DNA of 39,448 nt from a virus (taxonomy: Duplodnaviria > Heunggongvirae > Uroviricota > Caudoviricetes): the IMG/VR virus record IMGVR_UViG_2585427754_000011; one strand, 5' to 3'. Below are positions 1 to 36,828 of the stretch, piece by piece. Position numbers and translations under genes: made by a program. The notes under the pieces are model-generated. The model made no database searches and was not told where the DNA came from. It was given only the letters and a program-made list of their open reading frames with translations. The stretch's first letter is position 1; every line of letters begins with the position of its first letter.

Positions 1-1053
1 TTACGGGGTAATGCCAACCGCTGCCGCCACTTTGTCGCCACTTGGCAGCGTTGCCAGAGGATTGAAACGGAGCGCCGTTTCCAGATGATCCGGTGCCAGA
101 TGTGCGTAACGCATAGTCATTTTTATATCGTGGTGTCCGAGAATTTTTTGTAAGGCCAGAATGTTTCCACCCGACATCATGAAGTGCGCCGCAAACGTAT
201 GGCGCAGAACGTGTGTGAGTTGACCGCGAGGGAGCACGATAGACGTTTTTTCCATCACGGATAAAAATTGAAAATAGCAGTCTGTGAAGAAATTGAACCC
301 ATCAAGCGCCATGATCTCTTCGTAAAGCTCTTTACTGATAGGGATGCTTCTGTTTTTCTTCCCCTTCGTTCTTACAAAGGTAATTCGGTATTTGGTCACC
401 TGTGAGCGGGTAAGATTTACGGCTTCTCGCCAGCGTGCGCCTGTGCTTAAGCATATCTTAACTACCAGTGCCAGAATTGGGTCCTGACGTTTGCAATCAG
501 CCAGTAATTCAACAATCTGCTCATGGGTAAGCCATGCCATCTCTTTTTCTGCGATGGTGAATTTTCGCATGTTCTCCAGTGGGTTCGGATACGACCATTC
601 GCCCAGGCGGGATAGTTCGCTAAAAACACTACTTAGATAGCTTTGCTCCAGGTTAATGGTGACCGGGCTTGCTCCTTTCTTCCATTTCTCGCTGAAGTAG
701 ATCTCACCTGTCAGGCGTTTATCTCGATAGTGGGCAAACATTTTAGAGGTTAGATCAGTTGCAAGGGGATTGCCCAGAGCGTCAACCATCAGCAGCAATT
801 TGTCATAGACATGCTGCCCAGCAGTCAGAGATTTACCATGTAGTTTGAACCATAGCTCAACCACGTCTTTCAGTGTTCGACGATCCACTGATTCACCCAG
901 CCAGGGCTTTGCTTCGGTTTCTTCCATCGTGTGACGCTCAAAAGCCAGTGCTTCGCCTTTGGTGGCGAATTGTTTACGCACACGACGCCCACTACGTCCG
1001 GCGGGGTAACATTCGCAAAGCCATTTTCCTGTGGTGAGTTTTCGTACAGCCAT
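1..1053 (-). CDS. int: Tyrosine integrase, P2/186 family
   Basis: Translation from the internal ATG (MAVRKLTTGKW...) resembles P2 Int N-terminus (MAIKKL...) and carries the tyrosine recombinase C-terminal region (HVLRHTFAAHFMM...GHHDIKMTMRYAHL). The longer ORF start at 1131 would abut the upstream gene. Stop codon is at 1-3. Confidence 0.9.
   Translation of the reverse strand: MAVRKLTTGKWLCECYPAGRSGRRVRKQFATKGEALAFERHTMEETEAKPWLGESVDRRTLKDVVELWFKLHGKSLTAGQHVYDKLLLMVDALGNPLATDLTSKMFAHYRDKRLTGEIYFSEKWKKGASPVTINLEQSYLSSVFSELSRLGEWSYPNPLENMRKFTIAEKEMAWLTHEQIVELLADCKRQDPILALVVKICLSTGARWREAVNLTRSQVTKYRITFVRTKGKKNRSIPISKELYEEIMALDGFNFFTDCYFQFLSVMEKTSIVLPRGQLTHVLRHTFAAHFMMSGGNILALQKILGHHDIKMTMRYAHLAPDHLETALRFNPLATLPSGDKVAAAVGITP
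19..40. repeat. Putative attL core (22-bp direct repeat shared with 36594-36615)
   Basis: cgctgccgccaCtttgtcgcca at 19-40 versus cgctgccgccaTtttgtcgcca at 36594-36615; flanking sequence diverges on both sides. The core overlaps the int 3' end. Confidence 0.55.
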
Positions 1054-1054
1054 A

Positions 1055-1077
1055 AAAAATGCCCTCCAGTGGAGAGC
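1055..1077 (-). terminator. Hairpin plus T-run between the KAP NTPase gene and int
   Basis: Minus strand reads GCTCTCC-ACT-GGAGGGC followed by ATTTTTT immediately before the int ATG; the stem contains GGAGG, which could double as the int Shine-Dalgarno. Confidence 0.4.
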
Positions 1078-1132
1078 ATTTTTACTGTATATATAACCAG
1101 TGTCAATGTATGAATTTGTATAGCCATACATA

Positions 1133-2464
1133 TCACTGAAGTAAAAAAACTTTTAAAGCATCTTTCACAATATTTGTTGGTTCACCAATACCGCCACCAC
1201 CTTTTAAAAAATGGTATTCACTCATTTCTGCCCATTGTCTTTTTATATTTTCCTCAGCAGGTAAAAGAGATGAGTTTTCAGATAAGTATTTGTAAACTAT
1301 TCCAAATATAGCATATTCATAATTATCTACATTATATTCACTTGTTTGATATGAAAATTTAGATAAACCAAACAATTTCATGATTGATTGAGCATCAACT
1401 TTATCTTCAAGAAAGTTGAGAGCTAACTCTCGGTTAAAAGTGTAGATTATTATCGCTAGAGTCCTGTAATAACAATATCCATAAATATATTTGTTGCTAA
1501 TTTTGTCGCCTGATAGTAGTTGGTATATTTCAACATATCTAGCAAGTGTTTCAACCTCACGTAATGATAATTTTCTACTTTCAATGAACTGTAAGAAAAT
1601 ATCTTCGCTGGCTTCTACTGCAGCGGTCAGCCTTTCAGATTGCTCACATAGCATCATCCAATGATTTTTGGAAGTTAAAGTGTCATTATAATTATCTTCC
1701 TTAAAGGTAACAGGAAGGCTGTATGTAAATTTTATAAATTTGTCAAGATAACGGTTGGAGTCTACAGAAGAGCCATAGATATGATTTATGGATGCTTTTA
1801 GTTGAGTTGTGTTTGCAATTAATAAAAAGTTAATGTTTTTTATATCAAAAACATGTTTTATATTTTCAATAATAGAAATGGCAAAACTAGGCTTACATCT
1901 GTCTAACTCATCTATAATTATTGTTAGTTTACTTTCTCCAGCTAATTTGGTTAGTACTTCTTTTAGAGCAAGAACGTTCTTTTGTGCCTCGATATGATCT
2001 TCTAACAGAGCCTCGATGGTTCCATCGATAGCTGAATTTGCAGCGTCTTTGATAACCTCTTCAAATTCCTCATTAATTTCATCCGCATTTTGTTTTAATA
2101 CCCAACCAGCACCAGCTTTGAGTACAGTCTTAAGTCCGAATCTGAGGGCTGGCAATGCCTTAGATATTAATTCCTTTTTTTCATCGCTATTATATAGAGC
2201 TGCAATTGCGGCCATTATTGTAAGTATGGGAGCATCGTTGTGATCTTCAGTAAAAGCATCTATATAAACTACTTTATGATTGGTCGAGTTTATTTCAATT
2301 AAGGATGCTAACTTTTTTGAAAACTCTGTTTTTCCAGTCCCCCAGTCCCCATCTATGACCATAGGTGAAACAGGAATATTAGACTCTAGCAAACTTATTA
2401 TTTTTTCTGCAATGGCTTTTCTTTTATATTCATCACGTATATCGAAAGTTATATCTGTGCTCAT
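1133..2464 (-). CDS. KAP-family P-loop NTPase (443 aa)
   Basis: Walker A GDWGTGKT and the KAP-type Walker B IIIDELDRC are both present. ATG start confirmed; AT-rich relative to flanking phage genes. Sits 13 nt downstream of the small ORF stop. Confidence 0.8.
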   Translation of the reverse strand: MSTDITFDIRDEYKRKAIAEKIISLLESNIPVSPMVIDGDWGTGKTEFSKKLASLIEINSTNHKVVYIDAFTEDHNDAPILTIMAAIAALYNSDEKKELISKALPALRFGLKTVLKAGAGWVLKQNADEINEEFEEVIKDAANSAIDGTIEALLEDHIEAQKNVLALKEVLTKLAGESKLTIIIDELDRCKPSFAISIIENIKHVFDIKNINFLLIANTTQLKASINHIYGSSVDSNRYLDKFIKFTYSLPVTFKEDNYNDTLTSKNHWMMLCEQSERLTAAVEASEDIFLQFIESRKLSLREVETLARYVEIYQLLSGDKISNKYIYGYCYYRTLAIIIYTFNRELALNFLEDKVDAQSIMKLFGLSKFSYQTSEYNVDNYEYAIFGIVYKYLSENSSLLPAEENIKRQWAEMSEYHFLKGGGGIGEPTNIVKDALKVFLLQ

Positions 2465-2675: not shown

Positions 2676-3245
2676 TTATCTAACATACTTAACTGTTAAG
2701 CTTATAATTTTTCCAATTATTTCAACATCTTCTATCTTGCACTCGAAGGCTCTGTTTCCACCTTCAACGAAAATTCTTCCACCGGGTAAACGAGTGATGT
2801 CGCGGATTGTTATTTCGCCATCAATACTTATTACCCATTTACCATCACGTATATCATCAAATTCTTTATCACAAATAAATTCAGAATTGTTATCTGTGAT
2901 GACAAAAGGTTTTTTAAACGTAGAGGGTAGAAATCCCTTATCAAAAATATAAAAACCGTCTTCCTGCAATGCTCCATCAGACAATAAATATTTTACTACT
3001 TCTATAGTATTTGTATTTGCTGATGCTTGCTTTGAACCATGCCCTGTTGTTAGCCAATTAAGCGAGGTACCCGTTTCAAGGGCGCACTGGATTACCCAAT
3101 CTGCCGGAAAAATATCACGCATATAACGCGTTGCCATGGTGCTCTTAGAAACACCTAAATGATCACAGAGAGCCTGACGGGTACCGAACCCGTATGCTTC
3201 AACCAAACGTTCTATGGCTTTCTTACCGCCGCTATTGAAATCCAC
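2676..3245 (-). CDS. cI: CI-like immunity repressor (phage 186 CI type)
   Basis: Resembles 186 CI as I remember it (EAYGF...HCALETG...LNWLTTGHG) with an HTH-like segment. The ORF-track start at 3332 is a GTG and would overrun the promoter region; I place the start at an internal GTG at 3245 preceded by GGAGG. Confidence 0.75.
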   Translation of the reverse strand: MDFNSGGKKAIERLVEAYGFGTRQALCDHLGVSKSTMATRYMRDIFPADWVIQCALETGTSLNWLTTGHGSKQASANTNTIEVVKYLLSDGALQEDGFYIFDKGFLPSTFKKPFVITDNNSEFICDKEFDDIRDGKWVISIDGEITIRDITRLPGGRIFVEGGNRAFECKIEDVEIIGKIISLTVKYVR

Positions 3246-3272
3246 AAATCCTCCAAAGAAATCCAAAATTCG

Positions 3273-3301
3273 TTGACAGATTCCAAAAGCGATCTTAAAG
3301 T
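3273..3301 (+). promoter_or_regulatory. Candidate pR-like early promoter
   Basis: TTGACA at 3273-3278, 17-bp spacer, TAAAGT at 3296-3301, upstream of apl; sits in the cI/apl switch region. Confidence 0.35.
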
Positions 3302-3390
3302 TGAACCAGAAGTCTTCTTTTGGAGCCTTCACTACTAATCACGACAAACAACGGCTCGCCAAAAGCCATATCTAGAAGGAATGTTGCCTT

Positions 3391-3594
3391 ATGACACCTA
3401 ACATTTCAATTACTCTGAATACACCACATGTCACAATCGAACGTTATAGCGAACTGACTGGCCTTTCTATTGATACGATTAACGACATGTTGGCTGATGG
3501 CCGACTACCTCGTCATCGTCTTCGTAAAGACAAAAAACGTGAAAAGGTAATGATTAACCTGGCTGCTCTGACTGTTGATGCTTTGTCTGCTTAA
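3391..3594 (+). CDS. apl: Apl/Cox-like small DNA-binding excision and regulatory protein
   Basis: 67-aa ORF in the position of 186 apl, between cI (divergent) and cII. Confidence 0.6.
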
Positions 3595-6262: not shown

Positions 6263-7116
6263 GCACCATCCTGAAATGGGCGGGAAATAAAACCGCAATT
6301 ATGTCCGAACTGAAAAAACACCTTCCTGCTGGCCCGCGACTGGTTGAACCTTTCGCGGGTTCCTGTGCTGTGATGATGGAGACGGATTATCCCAGCTATC
6401 TGGTTGCGGATATTAATCCTGATTTAATCAACCTCTATAAAAAGGTTGCCGCTGATTGTGAATCATTTATATCTCGCGCCAGAGTTTTATTTAAGGAAGC
6501 AAACAGGGAGGTGGCTTATTACAACATAAGGCAGGAGTTTAATTACTCAACTGAAATTACTGATTTCATGAAAGCGGTATATTTCCTGTATCTCAATCGT
6601 CACGGTTACCGTGGTTTATGTCGCTATAACAAGAGCGGGCATTTCAACATTCCCTACGGTAATTATAAAAATCCGTATTTCCCTGAAAAAGAAATTCGCG
6701 CATTTGCAGAAAAAGCCCAGCGGGCAACGTTTATCTGCGCCAGCTTTGATGAAACGCTGGCGATGTTGAAGGCGGGGGATGTGGTGTATTGCGATCCGCC
6801 GTATGACGGCACGTTTTCCGGTTATCACACTGACGGCTTCACTGAAGATGACCAGTATCACCTGGCATCCGTTCTTGAACATCGGTCATCAGAAGGACAT
6901 CCGGTCATTGTTTCTAACAGTGACACATCCCTGATCCGTTCGCTGTATCGCAATTTTACTCACCACTACATCAAGGCAAAACGCAGCATCGGCGTAGCAG
7001 CTGGTGAGAGTAAATCTGCAACAGAAATCATCGCTGTTTCTGGGGCGTGCTGCTGGGTGGGATTTGATCCTTCGCGTGGCGTGGATAGTTCAGCCGTGTA
7101 CGGAGTGCGTGCATGA
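6259..7116 (+). CDS. dam: DNA adenine methyltransferase (Dam-like)
   Basis: ILKWAGNK N-terminus, FAGS, and DPPY catalytic motif. ATG at 6259 with GGAGGTG upstream. Confidence 0.85.
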
Positions 7117-9527
7117 GCCATGCTGATATGAACAACTGCAGCGGCTTTAACGAGGCCGCCGCAGCATTCTCATGGAACAGCCCGAAAAAGGCTATTAACC
7201 CTTATCTGGACCCGGCGGAAGTTGCGCCGGTTTCTGCGCTTTCAAACCTGATCACTCTGTACGCTGCCGATAACGAGCAGGAACAACTGCGCCGCGAGGC
7301 ACTGAGTGATCAGGTCTGGGAGCGTTATTTCTTTAATGAATCCCGTGATCCTGTCCAGCGCGAAATGGAGCAGGATAAGCTCATTAGCCGGGCAAAGTTG
7401 GCGCATGAGCAGCAGCGTTTTAACCCGGACATGGTCATTCTGGCAGACGTCAGCGTCCAGCCCTCCCATATCAGCAAGCCGCTGATGCAACGTATTGAAT
7501 ACTTCAGCAGCTTGGGCAGGCCAAAGGCTTATTCCCGCTATTTACGTGAGACGATTAAGCCATGTCTGGAACGACTGGAGCATGTACGCGACAGCCAGCT
7601 ATCTGCATCTTTTCGTTTTATGGCAAGCCATGTAGGGCTGGACGGCCTGCTGATTCTGCCTGAAATGAGTCAGGATCAGGTGAAACGCCTGTCTACCCTT
7701 GTCGCTGCGCATATGAGCATGTGCCTTGATGCAGCTTGTGGTGATTTGTATGCCACCGATGACGTTAAGCCGGAAGAAATCCGCAAGACATGGGAAAAGG
7801 TGGCAGCGGAAACCCTGCGTCTGGATGTCATCCCGCCTGCGTTTGAGCAACTCCGTCGGAAAAGAAACCGCCGTAAACCCGTGCCCTATGAACTCATTCC
7901 GGGTTCGCTGGCGCGTATGTTGTGCGCCGACTGGTGGTACCGGAAATTATGGAAAATGCGTTGCGAATGGCGGGAAGAGCAGTTGCGTGCTGTCTGCTTG
8001 GTCAGCAAAAAAGCATCTCCCTATGTCAGCTATGAAGCCGTGATGCATAAACGTGAGCAGCGCCGCAAGTCACTGGAGTTTTTCCGTTCTCATGAACTGG
8101 TGAACGAAGAGGGCGACACGCTGGATATGGAAGACGTGGTAAACGCCAGCAGCAGCAACCCGGCGCACCGCCGCAATGAGATGATGGCCTGTGTTAAAGG
8201 TCTGGAGCTTATCGCGGAAATGCGCGGTGACTGCGCCGTTTTCTACACCATTACCTGTCCGTCACGTTTCCATTCCACGCTCAATAACGGCAGACCAAAC
8301 CCAACCTGGACAAATGCGACGGTAAGACAAAGCAGCGATTATCTGGTCGGCATGTTTGCTGCATTTCGTAAGGCGATGCACAAAGCCGGGTTGCGCTGGT
8401 ATGGCGTGCGGGTGGCTGAGCCGCATCATGACGGTACAGTTCACTGGCACCTGTTGTGTTTCATGCGCAAAAAAGACCGCCGCGCCATTACTGCATTGTT
8501 GCGTAAGTTTGCCATCCGTGAAGACCGCGAGGAACTGGGTAATAACACTGGTCCACGCTTTAAATCTGAGCTGATAAACCCGCGCAAAGGAACGCCGACA
8601 AGCTACATCGCGAAATACATCAGTAAGAACATTGACGGGCGTGGTCTGGCTGGCGAGATCAGCAAGGAAACGGGTAAATCCCTGCGTGATAACGCTGAAT
8701 ACGTTAATGCCTGGGCGTCTCTGCATCGTGTTCAGCAATTCCGCTTCTTTGGCATTCCGGGGCGTCAGGCTTACCGTGAACTGCGATTGCTGGCTGGTCA
8801 GGCGGCAAGGCAACAGGGGGACAAAAAAGCAGGTGCGCCGGTACTGGATAACCCGCGCCTTGATGCCATCCTGGCTGCTGCTGATGCTGGTTGTTTTGCC
8901 ACCTACATCATGAAGCAGGGCGGCGTACTAGTTCCCCGCAAATATCACCTCATCAGAACCGCTTATGAAATCAACGAAGAGCCGACCGCCTATGGCGATC
9001 ACGGCATTCGTATTTATGGCATCTGGTCACCCATTGCAGAGGGCAAGATCTGCACTCATGCAGTGAAGTGGAAAATGGTTCGTAAAGCCGTTGACGTTCA
9101 GGAGGCGGCAGCCGACCAGGGCGCTTGCGCCCCTTGGACTCGTGGCAATAACTGTCCCCTTGCTGAAAATTTGTACCAACAAGGGAAAGACAAATCAGCT
9201 GATGGAGATACCAGAACGGATATCACCCGCATGGATGACAAGGAGTTGCACGATTACCTGCACAGTATGAGCAAAAAAGAGCGCCGGGAACTGGCTGCAA
9301 GGTTACGCCTGGTGAAACCGAAACGGCGTAAAGACTACAAACAGCGAATTACAGACCATCAGCGACAGCAGCTCGTCTATGAACTGGAGTCCAGAGGATT
9401 TAATGGCAGCGAGAAAGAGGTCGATTTACTCCTTCGCGGCGGCAGTATTCCGTCAGGAGCAGGCCTGCGTATCTTCTATCGGAACCAGCGTTTGCAGGAA
9501 GATGATAAGTGGCGGAACCTGTATTAA
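7113..9527 (+). CDS. A: Replication initiation protein A (rolling-circle HUH endonuclease, P2 gpA type)
   Basis: 804 aa with HUH-like TVHWHLL and a YIAKYISKN tyrosine motif; start overlaps the dam stop (ATGA). Confidence 0.9.
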
Positions 9528-9619
9528 TTACGCTGGTTAACAATTCGTGCTCTTAATAATACCAAGTATATCAGGCTGATAAGCGTAAAAAAACGTTTTA
9601 CATCAGTAAGATTATTATA

Positions 9620-9639
9620 TACTGTAAATATAAACAGTG
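9620..9639. promoter_or_regulatory. LexA box (SOS operator)
   Basis: TACTGTAAATATAAACAGTG fits CTGT-N8-ACAG; overlaps a TATACT -10-like hexamer upstream of the tum-like ORF. Confidence 0.6.
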
Positions 9640-9680
9640 TTTATACATACAGCATTGCGTGTGGTGTCATAGGAGGAAAG

Positions 9681-9869
9681 ATGCAGGACTATTTTTTGGA
9701 GTCTTTGAAGCTCCAGCGCATTGATTTTTTTCTTAAGCTTGTAGCGGCTAGTGAGTGTAGTGATGAAGAGAAGGGGCTGGCTCTGCAGTGGGTTTCTGAA
9801 TTGACTGATGAACTCATGGCAAAAATCAGAAGCCACGAATACAACCGCTCAATGGATGTCATCAGCTGA
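9681..9869 (+). CDS. Putative Tum-like antirepressor (62 aa)
   Basis: First ORF after the LexA box, strong AGGAGG RBS; position matches 186 tum. No sequence-level confirmation. Confidence 0.4.
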   Translation: MQDYFLESLKLQRIDFFLKLVAASECSDEEKGLALQWVSELTDELMAKIRSHEYNRSMDVIS

Positions 9870-9879
9870 GGTGACTTTT

Positions 9880-10113
9880 ATGCGCATTGAAATAATGATC
9901 GATAAAGAGCAGAAGATTAGCCAGTCTACCCTGGACGCCCTTGAATCCGAGCTTTACCGCAATCTGCGCCCCCTGTATCCCAAAACGGTAATTCGTATCC
10001 GCAAAGGTAGCTCTAACGGTGTGGAACTTACCGGATTGCAACTGGACGAAGAAAGAAAACAAGTGATGAAAATTATGCAGAAGGTGTGGGAAGACGACAG
10101 CTGGCTGCATTAA
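9880..10113 (+). CDS. DinI-like protein
   Basis: MRIEIMIDKEQK...WEDDSWL resembles E. coli DinI (MRIEVTIAK...WESADDWF) as recalled; GAGGTGA RBS. Confidence 0.7.
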   Translation: MRIEIMIDKEQKISQSTLDALESELYRNLRPLYPKTVIRIRKGSSNGVELTGLQLDEERKQVMKIMQKVWEDDSWLH

Positions 10114-10121
10114 GAAACGTT

Positions 10122-10151
10122 GCCCCCAGGAGGATTCATTCTGATGGGGGC
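10122..10151 (+). terminator. Hairpin downstream of the dinI-like gene
   Basis: Perfect 7-bp stem gccccca / tgggggc with a 16-nt loop. Confidence 0.4.
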
Positions 10152-10200
10152 TAGTTTAGGAAACGAGGCGTAAGGTGGGCGACCATTTTGATAATTGATC

Positions 10201-10274
10201 GTCCGCTTTGTGCTGTGAGTTCAACCGATGGATAGGGTTGCATCGATCCGTTGAACTCACAGCCATAAGCGGAC
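10201..10274. repeat. Long imperfect palindrome (~29-nt arms)
   Basis: gtccgctttgtgctgtgagttcaaccgatgg ... atccgttgaactcacagccataagcggac; roughly 25 of 29 arm positions pair. Confidence 0.7.
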
Positions 10275-10432
10275 TTAAATATCATATATACTAATTTGCC
10301 TTCAGGAGAAGGTAGTGAAATCCATCCTGCCGGAAAATCGTTAACGGCCCAAGAAAGGGCCGCTTGCTTATCAAAAATGTATCTATTTCTTAAAAATACA
10401 TTGAATTTATGGAAGTTTCCACTCTCAACATT

Positions 10433-11383
10433 TTAAACTATACCAGCGAAAGAGGTGCTTTTTGCTGGGGCTATGGCATATGAGAATGTTATTTCATTAC
10501 GATCATCGGCATCGCGACTACGATAAAGACTACTTTCAAGTTTAACGGCCAAATAATAACCATTAATATTTTGAATAACTGCAATATCGCCAACTTCAAG
10601 CGATTCTGTATCTTCACTCTTGAAGAATGCTTCAGAATTGGCATCTGTGATTTGATTGAAATCGGTAATGCCTTTAGCAAATACTAAGGAATGGAGACTT
10701 GGCTGACGCTTGTAAATGTAGGCTTGATTACGTCCCCCAACTCCCCACTTTGTCTCAAAAAGCATTTCACCTGAGCCAACCCAATAAGAGTCATAATTTC
10801 CATTTGGCACAAATGTAACTTTGCCTGTGCTTGTGGGGGATTGGTTAGCCCCATCTGGTTGAGATAAATTGACAGGGTTGATCGGAGGCGGTTTTCGGTT
10901 AAATGGGCTAGGTCCAGCCGCTGGGCGTGGTTTCATTTTCTCACCGTGCAAATCATGGATCAGCTCTACATAACTATTCTCATAATCCACAGCATCGAAA
11001 GAAAGCCGAAGGCGCGCACCTACGAAGGTTGGAACTGGCTCAGATAATGAGTTATTAACAATTACAGGGATAACGCGATTACTATTCAATTCTCGCATTA
11101 TCTGACTGGAAATGATCATTTTCTCATAACCTACCCCCCCTGATTTTTGCATATTGGCTTTAGCTACATATGGTTCTGTACAAATGACAAGCACTCGGTC
11201 AGCGCTTGTAAGCCCTTGCTCCATGAAAAGAGTAAGATCACTTCCCAATGTAATATCCCATTGGTCTAAGATTACGTGAACTCCATTTTGTTCAAGCCGG
11301 GTCGCAAGCTTTAACACCCATGCTTTATGCTCTTCACTATCATGAGAATAAGAAATAAAAAGTTTAGGTTTAGTTAGTTCCAT
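10433..11383 (-). CDS. TIR-domain protein with unknown C-terminal domain (316 aa)
   Basis: N-terminus KLFISYSHDSEEHKAW...VLVICTEPY is TIR-like, including a candidate catalytic Glu; ~180-aa C-terminal region without recognisable motifs. ATG start; AT-rich. Confidence 0.75.
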   Translation of the reverse strand: MELTKPKLFISYSHDSEEHKAWVLKLATRLEQNGVHVILDQWDITLGSDLTLFMEQGLTSADRVLVICTEPYVAKANMQKSGGVGYEKMIISSQIMRELNSNRVIPVIVNNSLSEPVPTFVGARLRLSFDAVDYENSYVELIHDLHGEKMKPRPAAGPSPFNRKPPPINPVNLSQPDGANQSPTSTGKVTFVPNGNYDSYWVGSGEMLFETKWGVGGRNQAYIYKRQPSLHSLVFAKGITDFNQITDANSEAFFKSEDTESLEVGDIAVIQNINGYYLAVKLESSLYRSRDADDRNEITFSYAIAPAKSTSFAGIV

Positions 11384-11748
11384 AAAAATCCCATTGTTTT
11401 ATATATGCCATACGATTCATACGATGAATACTAAGTGAAATCTGTGATTTATCTCGAAACTATTAAATTATAATGAGTCTTTAATTTAAATTATTTACAA
11501 CATGCATCTGATTCTAGTTTAAGTAACCATTTCAAACGGAACCATTCTCTTGTAGGTAGTGTCCAGCAGTCGGTTTAGGTAAATTCAAAGCCAGCGTTTG
11601 CCCTTCGCTCACTGTGGACTTTCATCTTTGTAAAACCGTATGTTTCGTTTTTCAAGCGGTCATACAGATACGGATTTGCACTTCCCTTAGTAGTGCATGA
11701 CTATGCCGCATGAAATCGCATGATCGTTTGAGGATCATCTTTGCTGAG

Positions 11749-11776
11749 GCCCGCCAGAATTGGCGGGCTTTTGCTT
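11749..11776 (+). terminator. Rho-independent terminator-like hairpin
   Basis: gcccgcc-agaatt-ggcgggc followed by ttttgctt. Confidence 0.5.
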
Positions 11777-11817
11777 ATCTCATGCAGGTGCATGAAAACC
11801 ACTACATAAAGCGGGCA

Positions 11818-11836
11818 GGCGTGGCGGGGATACGAG
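11818..11836. other. Candidate cos site (cohesive-end sequence)
   Basis: ggcgtggcgggga tacgag cgcgcgctg resembles the P2/186 cos ends as I recall them (GGCGAGGCGGGGAAAGCAC / GGCGTGGCGGGGAAAGCAT); sits in a GC-richer ~350-bp segment between AT-rich cargo. Confidence 0.4.
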
Positions 11837-11944
11837 CGCGCGCTGTATGCCTGAAGTGGCTAAAATAGTATCTGTCATAGGTACAACTTAGTGTAGTATC
11901 ATCCATATAATCCATTGAAATATAATCGACTCTCATTAGAGGTG

Positions 11945-12943
11945 ATGATGAACGGAATCTGGTACGAAAACACTCATACACGCATTCCTAATTTTGAAAC
12001 AACAGTACATCAAAAGCACAAATTCGGTTACGCTTATGAAACAACAAGTCATTTTGTGCATCTGTATGGGCGTGACATGGGATTTAATGTAATATCAGTT
12101 GGGTTAACTGTTATTGAGCAACGAAGTGGAACTCTCAATGATTGGGTTCGGAGAGTATTTGGGGCTCAGAACATATCTCCTTTAGATAATGAAATTGGAC
12201 ATGTAACTAGGGGAGTGTGGCGGCCATCCTTATATTATGTCAATGATACAGAAACAGCATTAGGTATCGATGAGTTTGAAAAAAGAGCAACAGAGCAAGC
12301 TCTAAGAGTTTTGATAGAAAAACTCGATGATATTTTTCTATATGTAGAACCAAGTGCCCATGGTTTGATTTCTTACAGTCATAAATGTAGAGAGCTATTA
12401 ATTCTTGCTTGTACTGAGGTTGAAAATCAATGGGTGTCAATCATTGGTAATTCGAATTTATCTCGTTCAAATGGTCGATACTCCACAAATGATTATGTGA
12501 AATTATTAGATAAGTGTTATTTGTCTGAATATAAAATTCAATATTTGAATTATGACGGATTAAGGCATTTCAAACCTTTTGATGGGTGGAATGCAAGTAC
12601 CCCTACAACATCTTTGTCATGGTATAATGCATATAATAAAACTAAACATGATAGATCAGGAGCATTCCACTTTTCCACTTTAGAAAATGTAATGGATGCA
12701 GTTGCTGCTTGTGTTGTAATGTACTGTGTAAAATATGGCCCGTTTAGCTTATTGGAAGCCAATACGTCTCTATCAACGATCGTTAATCAAAACTTTTCAA
12801 TTTCATTAGATAATAGCAATCCAGCAAGTTATTACATTCCTGAAATTGAACTTCCACCGGATACAAGAACGGATTTATTAATTTATGATTGTTATCGAGA
12901 AAACCATAATAAAGCATGGGTCACTGATCCCCTAGTGCTCTAA
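11945..12943 (+). CDS. Hypothetical protein (~332 aa), possibly HEPN/Abi-like
   Basis: ORF-track start at 11915 is TTG; ATG at 11945 follows GAGG. A single Rx4H-like motif (RSGAFH) is the only hint of a HEPN fold. AT-rich. Confidence 0.5.
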   Translation: MMNGIWYENTHTRIPNFETTVHQKHKFGYAYETTSHFVHLYGRDMGFNVISVGLTVIEQRSGTLNDWVRRVFGAQNISPLDNEIGHVTRGVWRPSLYYVNDTETALGIDEFEKRATEQALRVLIEKLDDIFLYVEPSAHGLISYSHKCRELLILACTEVENQWVSIIGNSNLSRSNGRYSTNDYVKLLDKCYLSEYKIQYLNYDGLRHFKPFDGWNASTPTTSLSWYNAYNKTKHDRSGAFHFSTLENVMDAVAACVVMYCVKYGPFSLLEANTSLSTIVNQNFSISLDNSNPASYYIPEIELPPDTRTDLLIYDCYRENHNKAWVTDPLVL

Positions 12944-12999
12944 TTTCCTGCTAAAGGGAGCTTTTAATTATAAACGCTCCCTTCGGTTGTCGCTATTTA

Positions 13000-13626
13000 T
13001 TATATATCAATAGAGTTTTGAAATTTTAATAACTGCCATCTTGTTAATAGTGGTTTTATTGCTATGTTGTGTTGTGTATTTATTTTTAAACCTTCGAATT
13101 TCGAATATCCATTTTCCAAGGCTTCCACTGAAAAATGAATGGTTTTTGTTATCGGGTTTATAGCACAAAGATTTAGGTCATATAAAGTATGAATGTCACT
13201 TCTGAGCAATAATCCATTGCTAATATGATTGTGACTATCGTTTCGATATACATTAATGTGAGCAGCATCAAGAATATCAACAAGCTTACAGCCCGTAACC
13301 GCACAAGTAGGATTTGATTTTAATAGCTGGTCGCGAAATGTTTTTTGCCCACTTCGTTGTTTTATTTGCCGTTCTACAATTTGCCGTTGATCTTCACCCA
13401 TTAAAGTGGGGGTGTCTTTATCAGCTTCGCTGGCGTTGAGCTCCAGAATAATAGTATGTTGGGCGGTAAGCAAAGCAACAGCCCATTGATAGTTAACTTC
13501 TTGGATGGACATTTGCCCATTGTAGCGTGGAGTTTCATCTATAAGTTGTGACATTGTAATATTGGATAATTTACGGTACTGGTTGCCGCAGTATGCTATA
13601 AATTCTTTAGCTGGCTCAAAAACCAC
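13000..13626 (-). CDS. HNH endonuclease-domain protein (HNH_2-like)
   Basis: DAAHI...NGLLLRSDIHTLYD matches the HNH motif pattern. Annotated start is GTG; true start uncertain. Confidence 0.65.
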   Translation of the reverse strand: MVFEPAKEFIAYCGNQYRKLSNITMSQLIDETPRYNGQMSIQEVNYQWAVALLTAQHTIILELNASEADKDTPTLMGEDQRQIVERQIKQRSGQKTFRDQLLKSNPTCAVTGCKLVDILDAAHINVYRNDSHNHISNGLLLRSDIHTLYDLNLCAINPITKTIHFSVEALENGYSKFEGLKINTQHNIAIKPLLTRWQLLKFQNSIDI

Positions 13627-13673
13627 TCTGGGTTCATCAAATTCATGGCCATTATCACAACGCCACTCTGATT

Positions 13674-13967
13674 TTATAGTTTTCCTTTGAAGAATTTTTT
13701 TGCTTTGCAGTCTAGGTTAATACATTTGTTACGCTTCTTATTAATGCTCTGTGTTTCTAATTTTTCAATAACAGATATACCTAATATATTTTCTCTGTTG
13801 GTAATAATATCACCGTCTTTTACATTTTTGTGGTTCGCTACAAAACTGTCATAGCGATAGAAAACTGATGAGTCATCGGGATAACTATCATTTCCCCAGT
13901 ATCTAAGATCGTCTTTCTCAATTGCCTTAAAAAAAACCATACTTGCTGTACCATGAACTTTTCCCAC
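13674..13967 (-). CDS. Hypothetical small protein (~90-97 aa)
   Basis: ORF 48 bp upstream of the HNH gene in a different frame; GTG start with an internal ATG at 13940. Confidence 0.3.
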   Translation of the reverse strand: MGKVHGTASMVFFKAIEKDDLRYWGNDSYPDDSSVFYRYDSFVANHKNVKDGDIITNRENILGISVIEKLETQSINKKRNKCINLDCKAKKFFKGKL

Positions 13968-14024
13968 TAATCAAATTTTGGTTTGTTCTATCGAACAGCA
14001 AAGCATGTTGATTTACAAGAGAAA

Positions 14025-15056
14025 TCATCCCAAAGAATATGGCTCAAATCGCAAAATTTTTTGTTCTAACCAGTCATTTACTTCACGCATCCTTTTTTGC
14101 AACGGTAATAATTCATTTCGCACAAACACATTTGCCGCCTTCTCCACATCCCCAAACCCCCCAACATTGCTAGGCATTATCCCCATCATTTGTGGTGGCA
14201 CACGATGCGCTGCCATCATGTCATCCCGACTCACGTTCTTGATGTTAAGAAATTCATCCTTCGCTGCGACTTCTGATAGCGGGATAATCTGAAGCCCGTC
14301 CTTTTTGCCGTTAGGCGAGTACATAAACAGGTTACGAAAGTTACCAGGACCTTTGGCACTTTTCATCGCGTTGCGGAGGTTGTTCACATCCTCCTGGTTC
14401 TGCGCGGCGTCGGTCATGTACATGATGAAGCCTGCATGGCTGCCGTTAATGTAATACTTCCGGCGGAACAGCGTGGCGGACTCGTTGAGCAGGGCGGATG
14501 GAATGGCAGAAAGGTAACCTGGCAGACCATAAATCTCCTGGTTGATATCCGGCTCCATCAGGTGGAAGACGTTACCTTTTGTGAACTGATACGGCTGTGT
14601 CGTCAGGCTGTATTGCACAAACCAGTAGGTATCCAGGTCTAATCCGCGTCGGGTGTATTTTGCCAGAGCTGGCTCAAGGGCGATAACTTCACCGAAGCGG
14701 TTCGTGCGTTTCTCCAGGTAGGCGTTACCAAATACCAGATAGTCCTGCACAAAACGTGAAAAAGCCTGCTGGCTGAGCAGCGGGTGAGGGATGTAGGTAC
14801 TGGTCAGAATGTTGCACTTTACTGCAATCGGGGAACTGTGATGCACAGCAGCGCGGAAGGTGCGCGCCAGTCCGTCAAAGCTGACGGGAGGCTCATACCA
14901 GCGATCTGTCTGTACGCATTCCACATAGTCCAGCAGTTCGCGGCGGTCAAGTACTGGAATGGGATCACCGAAGCTGAATGCTTCGGCTGTAGTCTGGCTT
15001 TTATGCTGGATCTGGTTCGTCGACGCAGCGCGGTTCTTCTTACTCTTTCCCATCAA
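14025..15056 (-). CDS. Q: Portal protein (P2 gpQ type)
   Basis: 343 aa, same size and position as P2 Q; overlaps the start of the terminase ATPase gene. Confidence 0.85.
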   Translation of the reverse strand: MMGKSKKNRAASTNQIQHKSQTTAEAFSFGDPIPVLDRRELLDYVECVQTDRWYEPPVSFDGLARTFRAAVHHSSPIAVKCNILTSTYIPHPLLSQQAFSRFVQDYLVFGNAYLEKRTNRFGEVIALEPALAKYTRRGLDLDTYWFVQYSLTTQPYQFTKGNVFHLMEPDINQEIYGLPGYLSAIPSALLNESATLFRRKYYINGSHAGFIMYMTDAAQNQEDVNNLRNAMKSAKGPGNFRNLFMYSPNGKKDGLQIIPLSEVAAKDEFLNIKNVSRDDMMAAHRVPPQMMGIMPSNVGGFGDVEKAANVFVRNELLPLQKRMREVNDWLEQKILRFEPYSLG

Positions 15057-16819
15057 AAAAACTCCACAATATTGCTGGTATTGGCGGATTCGCCCTGCAG
15101 CGGTTCGTTAAACAGTGCGTGCATCGTTGCCCAGGCCAGATCGGCGTGGCTGGCTTCTTCGCTGCGGCTGGCTTCATAGGTCGGGCGGTTGCCACTGGCG
15201 GTGGTGGCGCGACGGATTGCCATAAATGACTGGGCTATGTCGGTGTGTCCGGCGTCAAACTCCAGACGGCGGTGGCTGATAATGTCGTAGGCCTTGAGTA
15301 CCAGAGCGTTTTTAACGTTGGGGTTGTAGACAAACTCCCGGACGGCAGGAAAGAACGCTTTCACGTTCTCATAAACCCCGTGACCGACGCCTGTCGAGTC
15401 GATGCCGATATAGGTCACGTTGTACTGCTCGGTCAGTTTTTTGATTGCATCAGCCTGGGCGCGGAAGTCCATCCCGCGCCACTGGTGACGCTCAAGAATG
15501 CGAAACTTACCGCCTGGCACGGCTGGCGGTGCCACCACCACGCACCCGGCGCTGTCGCCGTTCTGCGTACCTTTTGCCGGGTCATAACCGATCCACACTT
15601 CGCGCCAGCCAAATGGGCGCAGCGCCAGTGCATGAAAGTCGGTCCAGACTTCCCAGCTGTCCACCATGCACGCCTGCAGCTCGCTGAGCGGGAACACGGA
15701 CGCGAGATCGTCCACGAACTCACACATCAGCAGGTTCTGGTATTCGTCCGGGCTGTACTCCATGCGTAACTGGTCGAGGTCGAACAGGTTACAGCCGCCG
15801 CGCACCGCATCTTCCACGGTGACTATCTGGCGGTATTGCCCGTCTGCGCACAGCAGGCCGGGGGCCAGATTGCTGTGGGACAGGTCGATGTCCACCTTAT
15901 CGGCTTTGTTGCGCCCACGGTTGAACAGCGCACCGGACCAGAGCGGATAAGCACTGTGTGTCAGGCTGGATGGCGTGGAAAAATAGGTTTGTCGCCATTT
16001 TTTGTGAATAGCCATACCGGAAGCCACTTTGCGCAGCTCCTGGAATTTCGGTATCCAGAAATATTCATCCAGATACAGGTTGCCGTGGTAACTCTGGGCC
16101 GTGCGGGCATTGGTGCCGAGGAAGTAAAGCGTGGCCCCGTTAGGAAGCACCATCGGATCGCCTTTCAGCTCCACCTCCACTTCTTTGGCAAAGTCGATGA
16201 TGTACTGTTTAAAGACGTGGGCCTGAGCCTTGCTGGCAGAAAGGAAAATCTGGTTACGCCCGGTCAGCAGGGCGTCAATCAGGGCTTCACGGGCAAAGTA
16301 AAAGGTCGCGCCGATCTGGCGAGACTTCAGCAGGTTGCGGATGCGATTGGTTTTTCCGGCTTCCCACCAGTGGCGCTGGTAGTTGAACATGGAGGAATGG
16401 AAGATTTCTTCCAGTTTCTCAATCTGTTCATCGGTGAAAACATTCTTTTCCGGCTGACGGCGCGGGCCCTTGTTGCGGTTGGCGACGTTAGGGTTTAAGT
16501 CAGCTTCGTTGCCGCCATTGTTAAACTTGCCGATCCGCGCGTGGCGCTCCGACTGGCGCGCCAGCAGGTCAATTTCTTTGAAATCTTTCCCTTCTTTATG
16601 CTCCTTCATGATGAGCTGGCAGTAGCGTGCGGCGGTGGTGAGCTGCATCTGATCCAGCGGCCCATAGTCACCCCACTTGTCGCGTTTTTTCCAGCTGTGA
16701 ACGGTTGCAACTTTCTCGCCCAGCATTTCAGCAATGCGGGCTACGCGGTATCCCTGAAAGTACAGCAGCATGGCCTGCCGACGGGGATCGAGATCTGCGG
16801 GTGTCAGTGTGGTGTTCAT
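15053..16819 (-). CDS. P: Terminase large subunit / ATPase (P2 gpP type)
   Basis: 588 aa, divergent from the capsid operon as in P2. Confidence 0.9.
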   Translation of the reverse strand: MNTTLTPADLDPRRQAMLLYFQGYRVARIAEMLGEKVATVHSWKKRDKWGDYGPLDQMQLTTAARYCQLIMKEHKEGKDFKEIDLLARQSERHARIGKFNNGGNEADLNPNVANRNKGPRRQPEKNVFTDEQIEKLEEIFHSSMFNYQRHWWEAGKTNRIRNLLKSRQIGATFYFAREALIDALLTGRNQIFLSASKAQAHVFKQYIIDFAKEVEVELKGDPMVLPNGATLYFLGTNARTAQSYHGNLYLDEYFWIPKFQELRKVASGMAIHKKWRQTYFSTPSSLTHSAYPLWSGALFNRGRNKADKVDIDLSHSNLAPGLLCADGQYRQIVTVEDAVRGGCNLFDLDQLRMEYSPDEYQNLLMCEFVDDLASVFPLSELQACMVDSWEVWTDFHALALRPFGWREVWIGYDPAKGTQNGDSAGCVVVAPPAVPGGKFRILERHQWRGMDFRAQADAIKKLTEQYNVTYIGIDSTGVGHGVYENVKAFFPAVREFVYNPNVKNALVLKAYDIISHRRLEFDAGHTDIAQSFMAIRRATTASGNRPTYEASRSEEASHADLAWATMHALFNEPLQGESANTSNIVEFF

Positions 16820-18873: not shown

Positions 18874-19524
18874 ATGAGCCTGAGTCCCGCACGGCAGCAT
18901 CGCCTGCGCGTTCAGGCTGAACAGGCCGCTCGCGAGGGTGGTAGTGTTCGCCACGCGTCGGGCTATGACCTGATGCTGCTGCAACTGGCGGAAGACCGCC
19001 GTCGTCTCAAGGGCGTTCAGTCCACGGTCAAAAAAGCGGAAATCAAGGTGGAGCTGCTGCCGAAATATGCCGCCTGGGCGGAGGGCGTTCTGGCTGCCGG
19101 AGGCGCTCAACAGGATGACGTGCTGATGTACGTGATGCTGTGGCGCATTGATGCCGGAGATTATGCCGGGGCGCTGGAGATCGGGCGTCATGCCCTGCGT
19201 CATGGCTGGGTGATGCCGCTGGGTAACCGCAACGTGCAGACCGTGCTGGCAGAGGAAATGGCAGATGCAGCCCAGAGCGCAATGCTTGCCGCCACCTGCT
19301 TTGATGCCGACCTGTTGCTGCAGACGCTGGAGCTGACAGACGGTCTGGATATGCCGGACCAGTCACGGGCGCGTCTGCATAAAGCGATTGGCGCTGTCCT
19401 GAGTGAAAGCAACCCGGCTTCCGCCCTTAATCATCTCAACCATGCGTTACAGCTCGATCCTCGCTGTGGCGTGAAAAAAGACAAACAGCAGCTGGAGCGC
19501 AGACTGCGCAATGACAGCCGCTGA
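18874..19524 (+). CDS. M: Terminase small (endonuclease) subunit (gpM)
   Basis: Position and size (216 aa) in the O-N-M-L block. Confidence 0.75.
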   Translation: MSLSPARQHRLRVQAEQAAREGGSVRHASGYDLMLLQLAEDRRRLKGVQSTVKKAEIKVELLPKYAAWAEGVLAAGGAQQDDVLMYVMLWRIDAGDYAGALEIGRHALRHGWVMPLGNRNVQTVLAEEMADAAQSAMLAATCFDADLLLQTLELTDGLDMPDQSRARLHKAIGAVLSESNPASALNHLNHALQLDPRCGVKKDKQQLERRLRNDSR

Positions 19525-22772: not shown

Positions 22773-24569
22773 TCAGGATTGTGATAAATTTATTAAACAT
22801 TGACAAAAATATTTAATGTCGTCACATATTTCATCTTTATTCATGTGTTCCAGAACTTCATCTCGAGTAATTGAGAAGTTATGTTTTAGTGAATTTTCGC
22901 CACTAATGAAAATTTCTTTTCCATGTGCGTCTTTTAAGGCTGCAGCTATATCTGTAGATGTTATCGAATCAGGGATAGCTAACGCATGCCTATCTCTAAA
23001 GAAGCTACGTATATCTTCTTCAGATGTCTCTGCAGCTCTTGCGATGGCTGATATATCTAGAAAGTAATTTTCAATGTGTCTGCGACGCCATTTCATGGCT
23101 AAAAAATCACTATCGCCGTGATTAGTTGATTTATCTTTAAGATCTGCTCCTACAGAATGGTCGCTATCATCATCACGATCGCGCATGCTAATGGCTTTTA
23201 AGTCAGGGATTTCATTTTTTAATTGTTTGTATAATTGAAACCTTTCTGAAGATTTTCCAGTCCAAAGCCATGTGACAATATTTTTTGGCCATGTTAGTTC
23301 TAACTTTTTAAATATTTTTTTTAGGAATCTTTCATCGCTAACACCTTCAACAATCAATAATCTTTTGTCTTCGGTAAGCTTATGGATTTTGGGGCTAAAG
23401 ATCGTGCCAATTCCACTTAATAGACCTATTTTTTCATTATCAGAACCAAGGTATTTCCCTCTGGAATTTGATAGTGCCAAAATTTTCTGTGGTTCATAAG
23501 CCCTGATTAACTCAGTAGAGTGTGTTGCCAATAGGACCTGCTTTCCTTTTTTAATTGTTATCTCTTCTAAACGTTCAGTTAGATTTTTCTGTAATTGTGT
23601 ATGTAGGTGAGCATCTGGTTCATCTAGTAGAATGACATTAAATTCTTCTGATAAGGCCAATGTATATACACTTAACCATTGAAGAAAACCGCTTCCTTCA
23701 ACCATAATATCTCTAGCATTGAAGTTTTTGTGTTTTTTAAATTGATAACCATTGACAACGCCAGCGACACATTCAATTTTTAAGTAACTATGATATTGTT
23801 CATTAAATGGAGTTACTTCAAGTTTTAAAGAAAAAAGGTCAAAGAGTGTTTTTTGTAATATTTCCCAAGGGTCTGTTTCCCTTAATAAATTAAGGTCTTT
23901 ATTGGCGATTTTGTTTCGCCCTTCTTTTAACCTCCGGCGTTTGTTTTGATTCTCTAGGTGAATATCGTAAATAGAATTTCTGATTACTCCACCAGAAAGC
24001 CCCTGACCGATTAGTCGATTCCTCATTGCTGGGCTAAGACGGCTTTCTCGGTCTGTAATACCTGCAAATGGAGGGAGATAAGCTATCTGGGGTATATTCT
24101 CATTATTTGGAGAACCATCGTCATTCTGTATTTCTTGTAAAGCAAGGTTGCTAGATGTATTTTTTATAAATAATCTATCATTTGCTAATGATAAACCGAT
24201 CTCTAAAAACTTCTCATTTTTTAAACTATCATCCCAAAAAAGCTTTATCTTTAGAGTATAACCATCATCTTCTGTTTGTTTTTGAGATTTTAAATTGGTC
24301 CATAAGTGGCTTAAAGACGGTATAAACATCGGCGTGAAATCGACAATGCCTAGTCCGACACCTTGATTTGTCGCATTTTCAGTCCAACTCACTCTTCCTT
24401 TTTCAATTTCTAAAAGAGTCTTACAGAATTGCCACGTTGCCATTGCTTGCAGTAACGATGATTTACCGGAATTGTTCCCGCCGACCAGGAGGCTTAATTC
24501 GTCATTTAATTGTATTGTTGAGTTTTTATATTTTTTAAATTTCTTAAGCTCTACTTTTTTTATGTACAT
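22773..24569 (-). CDS. OLD-family nuclease (ABC-type ATPase + Toprim), 598 aa
   Basis: Walker A GGNNSGKSS, Walker B ILLDEPDAHLH, H-loop LLATHS, then Toprim-like LLIVEGVSDE and RDRDDD. Convergent with S, sharing a terminator hairpin; strongly AT-rich. Confidence 0.75.
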   Translation of the reverse strand: MYIKKVELKKFKKYKNSTIQLNDELSLLVGGNNSGKSSLLQAMATWQFCKTLLEIEKGRVSWTENATNQGVGLGIVDFTPMFIPSLSHLWTNLKSQKQTEDDGYTLKIKLFWDDSLKNEKFLEIGLSLANDRLFIKNTSSNLALQEIQNDDGSPNNENIPQIAYLPPFAGITDRESRLSPAMRNRLIGQGLSGGVIRNSIYDIHLENQNKRRRLKEGRNKIANKDLNLLRETDPWEILQKTLFDLFSLKLEVTPFNEQYHSYLKIECVAGVVNGYQFKKHKNFNARDIMVEGSGFLQWLSVYTLALSEEFNVILLDEPDAHLHTQLQKNLTERLEEITIKKGKQVLLATHSTELIRAYEPQKILALSNSRGKYLGSDNEKIGLLSGIGTIFSPKIHKLTEDKRLLIVEGVSDERFLKKIFKKLELTWPKNIVTWLWTGKSSERFQLYKQLKNEIPDLKAISMRDRDDDSDHSVGADLKDKSTNHGDSDFLAMKWRRRHIENYFLDISAIARAAETSEEDIRSFFRDRHALAIPDSITSTDIAAALKDAHGKEIFISGENSLKHNFSITRDEVLEHMNKDEICDDIKYFCQCLINLSQS

Positions 24570-34705: not shown

Positions 34706-35187
34706 TGATGGTGCTGGGATTGTACGTGTTTATGCTGCGCACCGTTCCGTATCAGGAACTGCAGTATCAACGCAGCTGGCGACATGCGGCAAACAGTCGG
34801 GTAAACCGTCGTCCGTCCACGCAGTTTCTGGGACCGGAAAACGACATGCTGACGCTTTCCGGTGTTCTTATGCCGGAAATAACAGGCGGCAGGCTGTCGT
34901 TGCTGGCACTGGAGCAGATGGCAGAACAGGGGAAAGCATGGCCCCTGATTGAAGGCAGCGGCATGATTTATGGCATGTATGTGATTGAGGGACTGAATCA
35001 GACTAAAACGGAGTTTTTCCGCGATGGTATGCCGCGCCGGATTGAGTTTACCCTGTCGCTCAAACGGGTGGATGAATCCCTGTCCGATATGTTCGGTGAT
35101 CTCAGTGCGCAGCTGAATAATTTGCAGGATACGGCAACGTCTGCCTTAAGCGATATCAGTAAAACGGTGGGAGGGCTGCTGTCGTGA
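34702..35187 (+). CDS. U: Tail protein U
   Basis: 161-aa ORF between T and D. Confidence 0.8.
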   Translation: MMMVLGLYVFMLRTVPYQELQYQRSWRHAANSRVNRRPSTQFLGPENDMLTLSGVLMPEITGGRLSLLALEQMAEQGKAWPLIEGSGMIYGMYVIEGLNQTKTEFFRDGMPRRIEFTLSLKRVDESLSDMFGDLSAQLNNLQDTATSALSDISKTVGGLLS

Positions 35188-36374: not shown

Positions 36375-36593
36375 ATGATGATTTGCCCACTGTGTGGAAG
36401 TGCCGCCCATACTCGCAGCAGTTTTCAGGTATCTTCATTGACCAAAGAGCGTTACAACCAGTGCCAGAATATTAACTGCAGTCATACTTTTGTAACCCAT
36501 GAAACTTTTGTTCGTTCGATTGCAACGCCAAAAGAGTCAAATCCGGTTCAGCCGCATCCAATGAAATCAGGACAGGTGGCGCTCTCTCTTTGA
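36375..36593 (+). CDS. ogr: Late gene transcription activator (Ogr / 186 B zinc-finger)
   Basis: CPLCGSAAH...ERYNQCQNINCSHTF matches the Ogr/B Cys4 zinc-finger pattern as recalled. Confidence 0.8.
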   Translation: MMICPLCGSAAHTRSSFQVSSLTKERYNQCQNINCSHTFVTHETFVRSIATPKESNPVQPHPMKSGQVALSL

Positions 36594-36615
36594 CGCTGCC
36601 GCCATTTTGTCGCCA
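36594..36615. repeat. Putative attR core
   Basis: Direct repeat of 19-40, starting immediately after the ogr stop codon. Confidence 0.55.
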
Positions 36616-36828
36616 TCGTTAAAAAACAGTGCTTCTAACGTCATGATTTTAAACGGCATAAATTTCAGGCAACAAAAAACCCATCAACCTTGAACCGAAA
36701 TGGCGGGGGTGATGGGCTCCACAAAATGGGGACATCAAAGAAAAGCAGTGGCACTAATTAAGACTGATGCCCTGCGGAAAAGTTCTGCGGTTGTGCAAAA
36801 AAATTTCATTTTCAGGGCAACTTCAGTT

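Follow-up and report, generated by a model that had tools for sequence, protein, structure and literature searches.

The IMG/VR virus record IMGVR_UViG_2585427754_000011 (39,448 nt; hereafter the window, meaning the whole stretch of DNA that was analysed) carries a 186/Fels-2-like prophage of the Peduoviridae in an E. coli-type chromosomal context. Inside the accessory region between its replication gene A (gpA) and its portal gene (the gpQ/W homolog) we located a conserved 152-bp island at 11693-11844 that is very probably cos, the packaging and end-generating site of the prophage, with the cut positions assigned by homology. Such an indispensable island inside the gpA-portal region would divide it into two cassettes, a left slot on the gpA side of cos and a right slot between cos and the portal gene. 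Sequence comparison with related prophages indicates that the two slots assort independently, with the cos island as their common anchor.

Identity and conservation of the probable cos site

An earlier note on this DNA had singled out the string ggcgtggcgggga-tacgag-cgcgcgctg as resembling the cohesive-end region of P2 and 186, and had named alignment to the cos regions of these phages as the way to check it. The string is present exactly at 11818-11845, and the alignment bore the resemblance out. The GenBank records of 186 (NC_001317) and P2 (NC_001895), in which the cohesive ends are annotated, were used to join the right end of each genome to its left end, and the junctions were aligned to the window. 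The predicted 19-nt 5' cohesive end of the window, GGCGTGGCGGGGATACGAG, agrees with that of 186 at 15 of 19 positions, the first 13 nt being identical, and with that of P2 at 14 of 19. Ungapped identity over the interval from -37 to +26 around the cut was 50/63 to 186 and 47/63 to P2, and just past +26 it dropped to 4/14 and 3/14, respectively. Both the match and its limit at +26 agree with the ~55-bp core published for the P2 family (P2/P4; Ziermann & Calendar 1990, as cited in PMC5694545), and identical boundaries were found in 133 relatives.

The window 19-mer is a member of the GGCG(A/T)GGCGGGG... family of cohesive ends and is followed directly by CGCGCGCTG. The exact 13-mer GGCGTGGCGGGGA occurs only once in the 39.4-kb window, and no second cos-like core was found in the whole of it. 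Placement also fits a cos of the P2/186 type, since the element encodes a gpP/gpM-type terminase and the site is flanked by its replication-gene side and its portal/terminase operon. The likeness to 186 and P2 extends over the 19-nt overhang family, the core from about -37 to +26, the gpA-portal position and the terminase families; with 186 the window further shares a t95b-type terminator upstream of cos. An exact counterpart is found in Salmonella phage SEN8 (NC_047753, Felsduovirus), a plaque-purified, caesium chloride-banded phage whose published cos, ggcgtggcggggatacgag, equals the window 19-mer. The SEN8 record begins at this 19-mer, annotated there as 'putative cos site', and its last 128 bp correspond to the left part of the cos island and match the window.

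Across 133 distinct relatives the columns of the island are conserved at 80-100%, and both flanks fall abruptly to ~35%, the random level. The 19-mer itself is unchanged in 99 of the 133, and the best-kept columns (99-100%) are those of the 19-mer and its immediate flanks, not those of the terminator. Conservation on the portal side of the overhang covers only 7-8 bp (CGCGCGC). In close E. coli relatives, as judged from breakpoints, the island reaches left to ~11600. No Rfam family explains the island, the search giving one sub-threshold chance match at 11941-11969.

The left part of the island contains GCATG repeats (Table 1), which are candidate terminase-binding elements. Their columns are more than 90% conserved, and GCAT(G/T) repeats also align in P2 and 186. 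An intrinsic terminator, which the earlier note had put at 11749-11776, was recovered at 11746-11776 with a fold of -23.7 kcal/mol (z = -3.4; none of 200 shuffles folded as well). Its stem columns pair in 81-95% of the 133 relatives, and it aligns with the annotated 186 terminator t95b. The GC-richer segment described in the note at ~11520-11900 is equally apparent, with a GC content of 0.42-0.50 over 11500-11900 versus 0.28-0.36 in the flanks. We propose that the gpP and gpM homologs of the prophage (15053-16819 and 18874-19524) would make staggered nicks at this site, leaving the 19-nt 5' overhang GGCGTGGCGGGGATACGAG. The conserved determinants, namely the GCATG repeats to which the terminase may bind, the terminator hairpin and the ~37-bp core, would then lie nearly all on the gpA side of the cut.

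Several points weigh against this assignment. The cos of SEN8 was assigned by annotation, not by end sequencing. The cos island is matched by 83-86 phage records at 85-95% identity, among which only SEN8 starts at the site, its start having been chosen by annotation. An exact 26-mer scan of IMG/VR gave at least 120 stretches, 84 of them new loci and most of them prophage predictions, and among the matches listed none abuts a locus end; neither a phage record nor, among these matches, an IMG/VR contig has a physical end shown at the site. In the last six positions of the overhang the window departs from 186 at four, so that the exact cut positions are set by homology. Conservation of the terminator and of the GCATG repeats could also serve transcription rather than packaging.

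Two other loci with the cos core were recorded. IMGVR_UViG_3300011853_000021 holds two exact 26-nt cores, inverted and 3.2 kb apart (3440-3465, minus strand; 6704-6729, plus strand), which may have arisen through a rearrangement at cos or through misassembly. In Escherichia sp. E1V33, two short contigs of one genome both stop 51 nt past the cos core; these stops are consistent with assembly breaks in a cos island common to two P2-like prophages, not with physical DNA ends.

A site of the right kind might also be out of use if the prophage is defective or cryptic, and the slots would then be only historical. We give this a small chance. One cargo gene, encoding an HNH endonuclease, is already frameshifted, and attL falls outside the window, which starts at the integrase stop codon. 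However, the core genes that were checked (integrase, CI, CII, gpA, portal, both terminase subunits, gpO and gpD) are full-length open reading frames (ORFs) with strong Pfam matches, and, measured against the consensus of the 133 relatives, the cos island is not decayed.

It is less probable still that the island is a transcriptional element, combining the terminator of the DinI/p95 operon with a cargo promoter, and that the real packaging site lies elsewhere, for example beside the portal gene as in P2. Such an element would account for the strong t95b homolog, and also for the direction of the cargo: in 75 of 78 right-slot clusters (one representative each) the longest ORF reads from cos towards the portal gene, convergent with the late operon and away from the island, as from an adjacent promoter. 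Yet the window offers no second cos-like core, the 57 bp that separate the cargo from the portal stop hold neither a cos motif nor a stable hairpin, and the columns kept at 99-100% are the 19-mer and flanks, whose bases line up one to one with the cohesive ends annotated in 186 and P2.

Independent exchange of the two cargo slots

With the island taken as cos, the cargo of the window falls on its two sides. The left slot carries a TIR gene whose 316-aa product is, by profile match, a defence-type protein. Homology with E. coli relatives stops at ~10212-10232, downstream of DinI, and from ~10232 to ~11600 the window has no homology to the prophages of E. coli C21, AF3, 2018-11-3CC and K56-43, with conserved sequence on either side. 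This is the same position as old/tin in P2 and orf97 in 186, and the window matches the TO (tin-old)/gpA-cos hotspot of P2, its TIR gene lying between DinI and cos in a variable left slot.

On the other side, cos and the portal gene are 2188 bp apart, compared with 167 bp in P2 and 176 bp in 186. Conservation collapses at +27; homology with the E. coli relatives is lost at 11842-11866 and is back at 14037-14094. Because it resumes only there, the last 4-23 portal codons would travel with the cargo cassette, and the C-terminal tail of the portal protein appears to be part of the variable segment. Breakpoints in five pairwise comparisons fell at 11842-11844 (11866 in one) and at ~11600.

Each slot was found exchanged with the other left in place. 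The prophage of E. coli ZYS9073 matches the window over 9000-11842 at 98.6% identity (gpA end, DinI, the same TIR gene and cos) and again in the portal gene from 14074 at 91.5%, and its right slot carries an AIPR gene instead of the 332-aa/HNH pair. Equally, C21 matches over 11599-15500 at 97% (cos, the 332-aa gene, the split HNH gene and portal), with CdiI-like and RNase-A-like genes in the place of TIR in its left slot. Three more E. coli prophages have only the island (~11600 to 11842-11866) and the anchors in common with the window. AF3 has a reverse transcriptase of the retron Ec67 family immediately on the portal side of cos and a DUF8087 gene on the gpA side; in 2018-11-3CC the gpA side holds DarTG and the portal side an AAA ATPase; and in K56-43 these places are taken by a KAP NTPase and RES, respectively.

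For a broader survey we fetched 160 loci with relatives of the window portal gene, 80 from IMG/VR and 80 from GTDB species representatives (the best 80 matches per search), and determined for every locus where the portal stop, cos core and gpA lie. In the 111 relatives with both sides resolved, the right slots fell into 71 clusters and the left slots into 44, combined in 103 distinct pairs, and recurrent right clusters were nearly always paired with different left partners. These distinct pairings, together with the swaps in ZYS9073 and C21, indicate that the two sides assort independently.

Each cassette may be exchanged by homologous recombination between conserved anchors, the left one running from DinI to the left edge of cos and the right one from cos +26 to the 3' end of the portal gene. 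With both sides variable and recombining independently around cos, the TIR gene would lie near the right end of the virion DNA and the 332-aa/HNH group at its left end, before the portal gene. We found no statement in the literature consulted on which end of P2 or 186 DNA is packaged or injected first.

The right-slot cargo recurs in SEN8, where cos is followed by the same 332-aa gene, then by the HNH gene and by the portal gene (slot at SEN8 30-2213; 91.4% DNA identity). The HNH gene of SEN8 is intact at 319 aa, unlike that of the window, in which a poly-A run has lost 1 nt (A8 to A7; T7 on the plus strand at 13695-13701), breaking the gene into ORFs of 208 and 97 aa. Both ORFs match PHROG 21425, at positions 7-91 and 112-319. 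Alignment with SEN8 and C21 showed the same lesion in C21, and in the protein database a 208-aa version is represented by 54 member sequences; the split gene may be either a pseudogene or a slippage-prone tract. The hairpin between the two convergent cargo genes (12950-12987) is likely a bidirectional terminator. A two-gene system made up of the 332-aa and HNH genes was considered and rejected, as homologs of the 332-aa protein occur in Acinetobacter, Vibrio and Ereboglobus without an adjacent HNH gene.

There is very little to be said for the HNH protein being a packaging accessory, of the HK97 gp74 type that aids terminase cleavage, with no second cargo slot at all: although the gene lies next to cos and immediately follows the portal gene, sharing its strand and with no terminator between, it is frameshifted both here and in C21, it is not kept beside the terminase or portal genes in relatives (no right slot clusters with that of the window among the 137 other resolved relatives of the 160 fetched, and only two records, both of SEN8, match the right-slot segment among 50,697 phage records), its position is taken by retron reverse transcriptase, AIPR, RES or AAA-ATPase genes in related prophages, its HNH_2 domain gives restriction-enzyme-type PADLOC and NCBIfam matches, and the large terminase has an RNaseH-like nuclease domain of its own. 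On the strength of the frameshift, the absence from the fetched relatives and the unrelated genes at the same position, we therefore rejected an HK97-style role.

Slot occupancy across lineages and known hotspots

Taking the gpA-portal region as two slots separated by cos, we scored occupancy with heuristic thresholds of at least 250 bp on the right and at least 800 bp on the left, the left interval including the DinI region. The right slot was occupied in 104 of the 111 relatives (94%), the left in 74, and the two together in 68. Measured from the portal stop to cos, the interval had a median of 1685 bp in the IMG/VR relatives (n = 74; 2 under 300 bp) and of 1548 bp in the species-representative genomes (n = 63; 12 under 300 bp). 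For the P2-proper clade, with a portal at least 99% identical to gpQ (n = 79), the median was 169 bp, and 77 loci were under 300 bp (range 156-170). An occupied cos-portal slot is the rule in the lineage of the window, and the slot is empty in 77 of the 79 P2-proper loci. The left slots of P2 proper fell into 52 clusters in 72 loci, a diversity which means that the P2 sample is not clonal.

Relatives in the empty state keep a tW-like terminator after the portal gene. Likewise, 186 and P2 have a tW/tQ terminator between the portal stop and cos, whereas no stable hairpin was found after the portal gene of the window. According to the title of the 1996 paper by Dodd and Egan, what the retrons replace is the DNA from cos to a terminator. 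Around the portal stop an ungapped conservation profile gave no information, as portal 3' ends vary. The left slot showed no orientation bias (20 versus 15).

Use of the cos-portal slot may be lineage-specific and reflect different constraints on cos or on the late operon, a reading that we hold to be possible rather than probable. In 186/Fels-2-like phages the functional cos would be self-contained (-125 to +26), so that DNA could be swapped right up to +27. The P2-proper clade keeps a cos-Q spacer of ~169 bp in 97% of loci despite its hypervariable left slot, which suggests that the spacer is possibly a functional requirement there.

The type of cos, the slot between cos and portal and, in SEN8, this exact module were already known. 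As cited in PMC5694545, Dodd & Egan (1996) described retrons Ec67 and Ec86 in 186-related prophages at a cos-gpQ hot spot, and Nakayama (1999) placed ctx of phiCTX between cos and the gpQ equivalent; PMC5694545 itself assigns ORF1-4 of phiRSY1 to a left-arm insertion hot spot between cos and gpQ. The window resembles these cases in having foreign genes between cos and portal that differ among related phages, here an insert of 2188 bp with two genes. It differs in its cargo and in the extent of the replacement, which runs as far as the portal stop and takes in the terminator that follows the portal gene. The gpA-gpQ interval of P2-like prophages has also been described as a defence hotspot 'adjacent to the cos site' (Rousset et al. 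2022, PMC9122126; Egorov et al. 2024; PMC13586616). These surveys cover the same interval and the same kind of cargo, i.e. defence genes, but they are gene-based, treat one hotspot and catalogue whole arrangements (18,150 loci in Rousset et al. 2022), leaving the non-coding cos island unused. To this our analysis contributes the figures on occupancy, the finding that the slots assort independently, the contrast with P2 proper, the orientation bias of the right cargo and the comparative boundaries of cos.

Set against these results, most of what the earlier note had proposed for the cargo stands. It had placed the TIR gene before cos, taken P2 to have almost no spacer between cos and portal, and suggested that cos splits the hotspot into two cargo slots, and all three agree with the data. 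A 332-aa/HNH/small-ORF group does lie between cos and portal as it described; the HNH gene and the small ORF, which it counted separately, are one frameshifted 319-aa gene. Its description of the second slot as non-classical is apt for P2 itself but not overall, given that a hot spot there was proposed in 1996-1999 and that 94% of the relatives have it occupied.

Prophage context and significance

Table 1 Features of the prophage in the window. Positions relative to cos are counted from the first cohesive-end base.
Feature	Position	Strand	Evidence and remarks
Integrase	1-1131	-	Window starts at the integrase stop codon
KAP-family P-loop NTPase	1133-2464	-	Between integrase and CI repressor; accessory position
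CI repressor	2676-3332		CII and Dam methylase also between KAP NTPase and gpA
gpA, replication gene A	7113-9527	+	Pfam Phage_GPA 2e-127; conserved left anchor of the accessory region
DinI/Tum-like gene	9808-10113	+	Pfam DinI 1e-22, PHROG 189; kept in relatives
Left cargo slot, gpA/DinI to cos	10233-11598		Would form the right end of virion DNA
bSEFIR/TIR gene, 316 aa	10433-11383	-	Pfam TIR_2 3e-21, SEFIR 1.5e-15; PADLOC bSEFIR (PDLC03957) 4.6e-70, residues 4-302
Conserved cos island, 152 bp	11693-11844		-125 to +26
Three direct GCATG repeats	11695-11722	+	At -123, -110 and -100; candidate terminase-binding elements, function predicted
Intrinsic terminator	11746-11776	+	Hairpin 11746-11771 followed by U-run; homolog of 186 t95b
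Two more GCATG copies	11781-11794		Inverted at -37, direct at -28
Predicted 19-nt 5' cohesive end	11818-11836	+	Homology to annotated 186/P2 ends; SEN8 identity
Right cargo slot, cos to portal stop	11845-14024		Would form the left end of virion DNA
332-aa cargo gene	11945-12943	+	Candidate HEPN-like helical domain
Hairpin between two convergent cargo genes	12950-12987		-16.8 kcal/mol on both strands, z = -2.8 and -3.9
HNH_2 endonuclease gene, frameshifted	13000-13967	-	Pfam HNH_2; intact 319 aa in SEN8
Portal gene (gpQ/W homolog)	14025-15056	-	Pfam Phage_portal; 89-94% identity to many prophage portals; conserved right anchor
Large terminase (gpP homolog)	15053-16819	-	Pfam Terminase_6N, Terminase_6C, Terminase_5; expected cos cutter
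gpO			Between large and small terminase
Small terminase (gpM homolog)	18874-19524	+	Pfam Phage_term_smal 2e-40
Tail genes			After small terminase
gpD	35184-36284		
Ogr-like zinc-finger ORF	36376-36594		

Beyond the Ogr-like ORF, the right end of the prophage abuts the small RNA gene rybB (36671-36749; Rfam, 100 bits), followed by ybjL and ybjM, and the attachment site would therefore lie at or next to the 3' end of rybB. A 598-aa gene with AAA_15/AAA_21 and DUF3226 domains (OLD/Gabija-GajA-like; 22773-24569, minus strand) lies on the opposite strand within the tail-gene block and represents a further cargo locus. In all, the prophage has at least four cargo loci.

These results are confirmatory for P2-like phage biology, and their weight is more practical than conceptual. 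From the conservation profile the minimal cos of this lineage can be estimated, by comparison, as -125 to +26, which is useful for the design of cosmids and transduction. The gpA-gpQ hotspot is a main source for the discovery of anti-phage systems and has been analysed as a single gene arrangement (PMC9122126; PMC13586616; Egorov 2024). Since the cos island cuts the region into independently recombining cassettes in the 186/Fels-2-like lineage, it is unsafe to take genes that cos separates for parts of one system; pairs of this kind here are the KAP NTPase with RES, DarTG with the AAA ATPase, and TIR with the 332-aa/HNH pair. If slot use is indeed lineage-specific, gpA-gpQ catalogues would mix two cassettes, and some of the multi-gene defence systems inferred from them may be chance neighbours. 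Splitting such loci at cos would sharpen guilt-by-association predictions.
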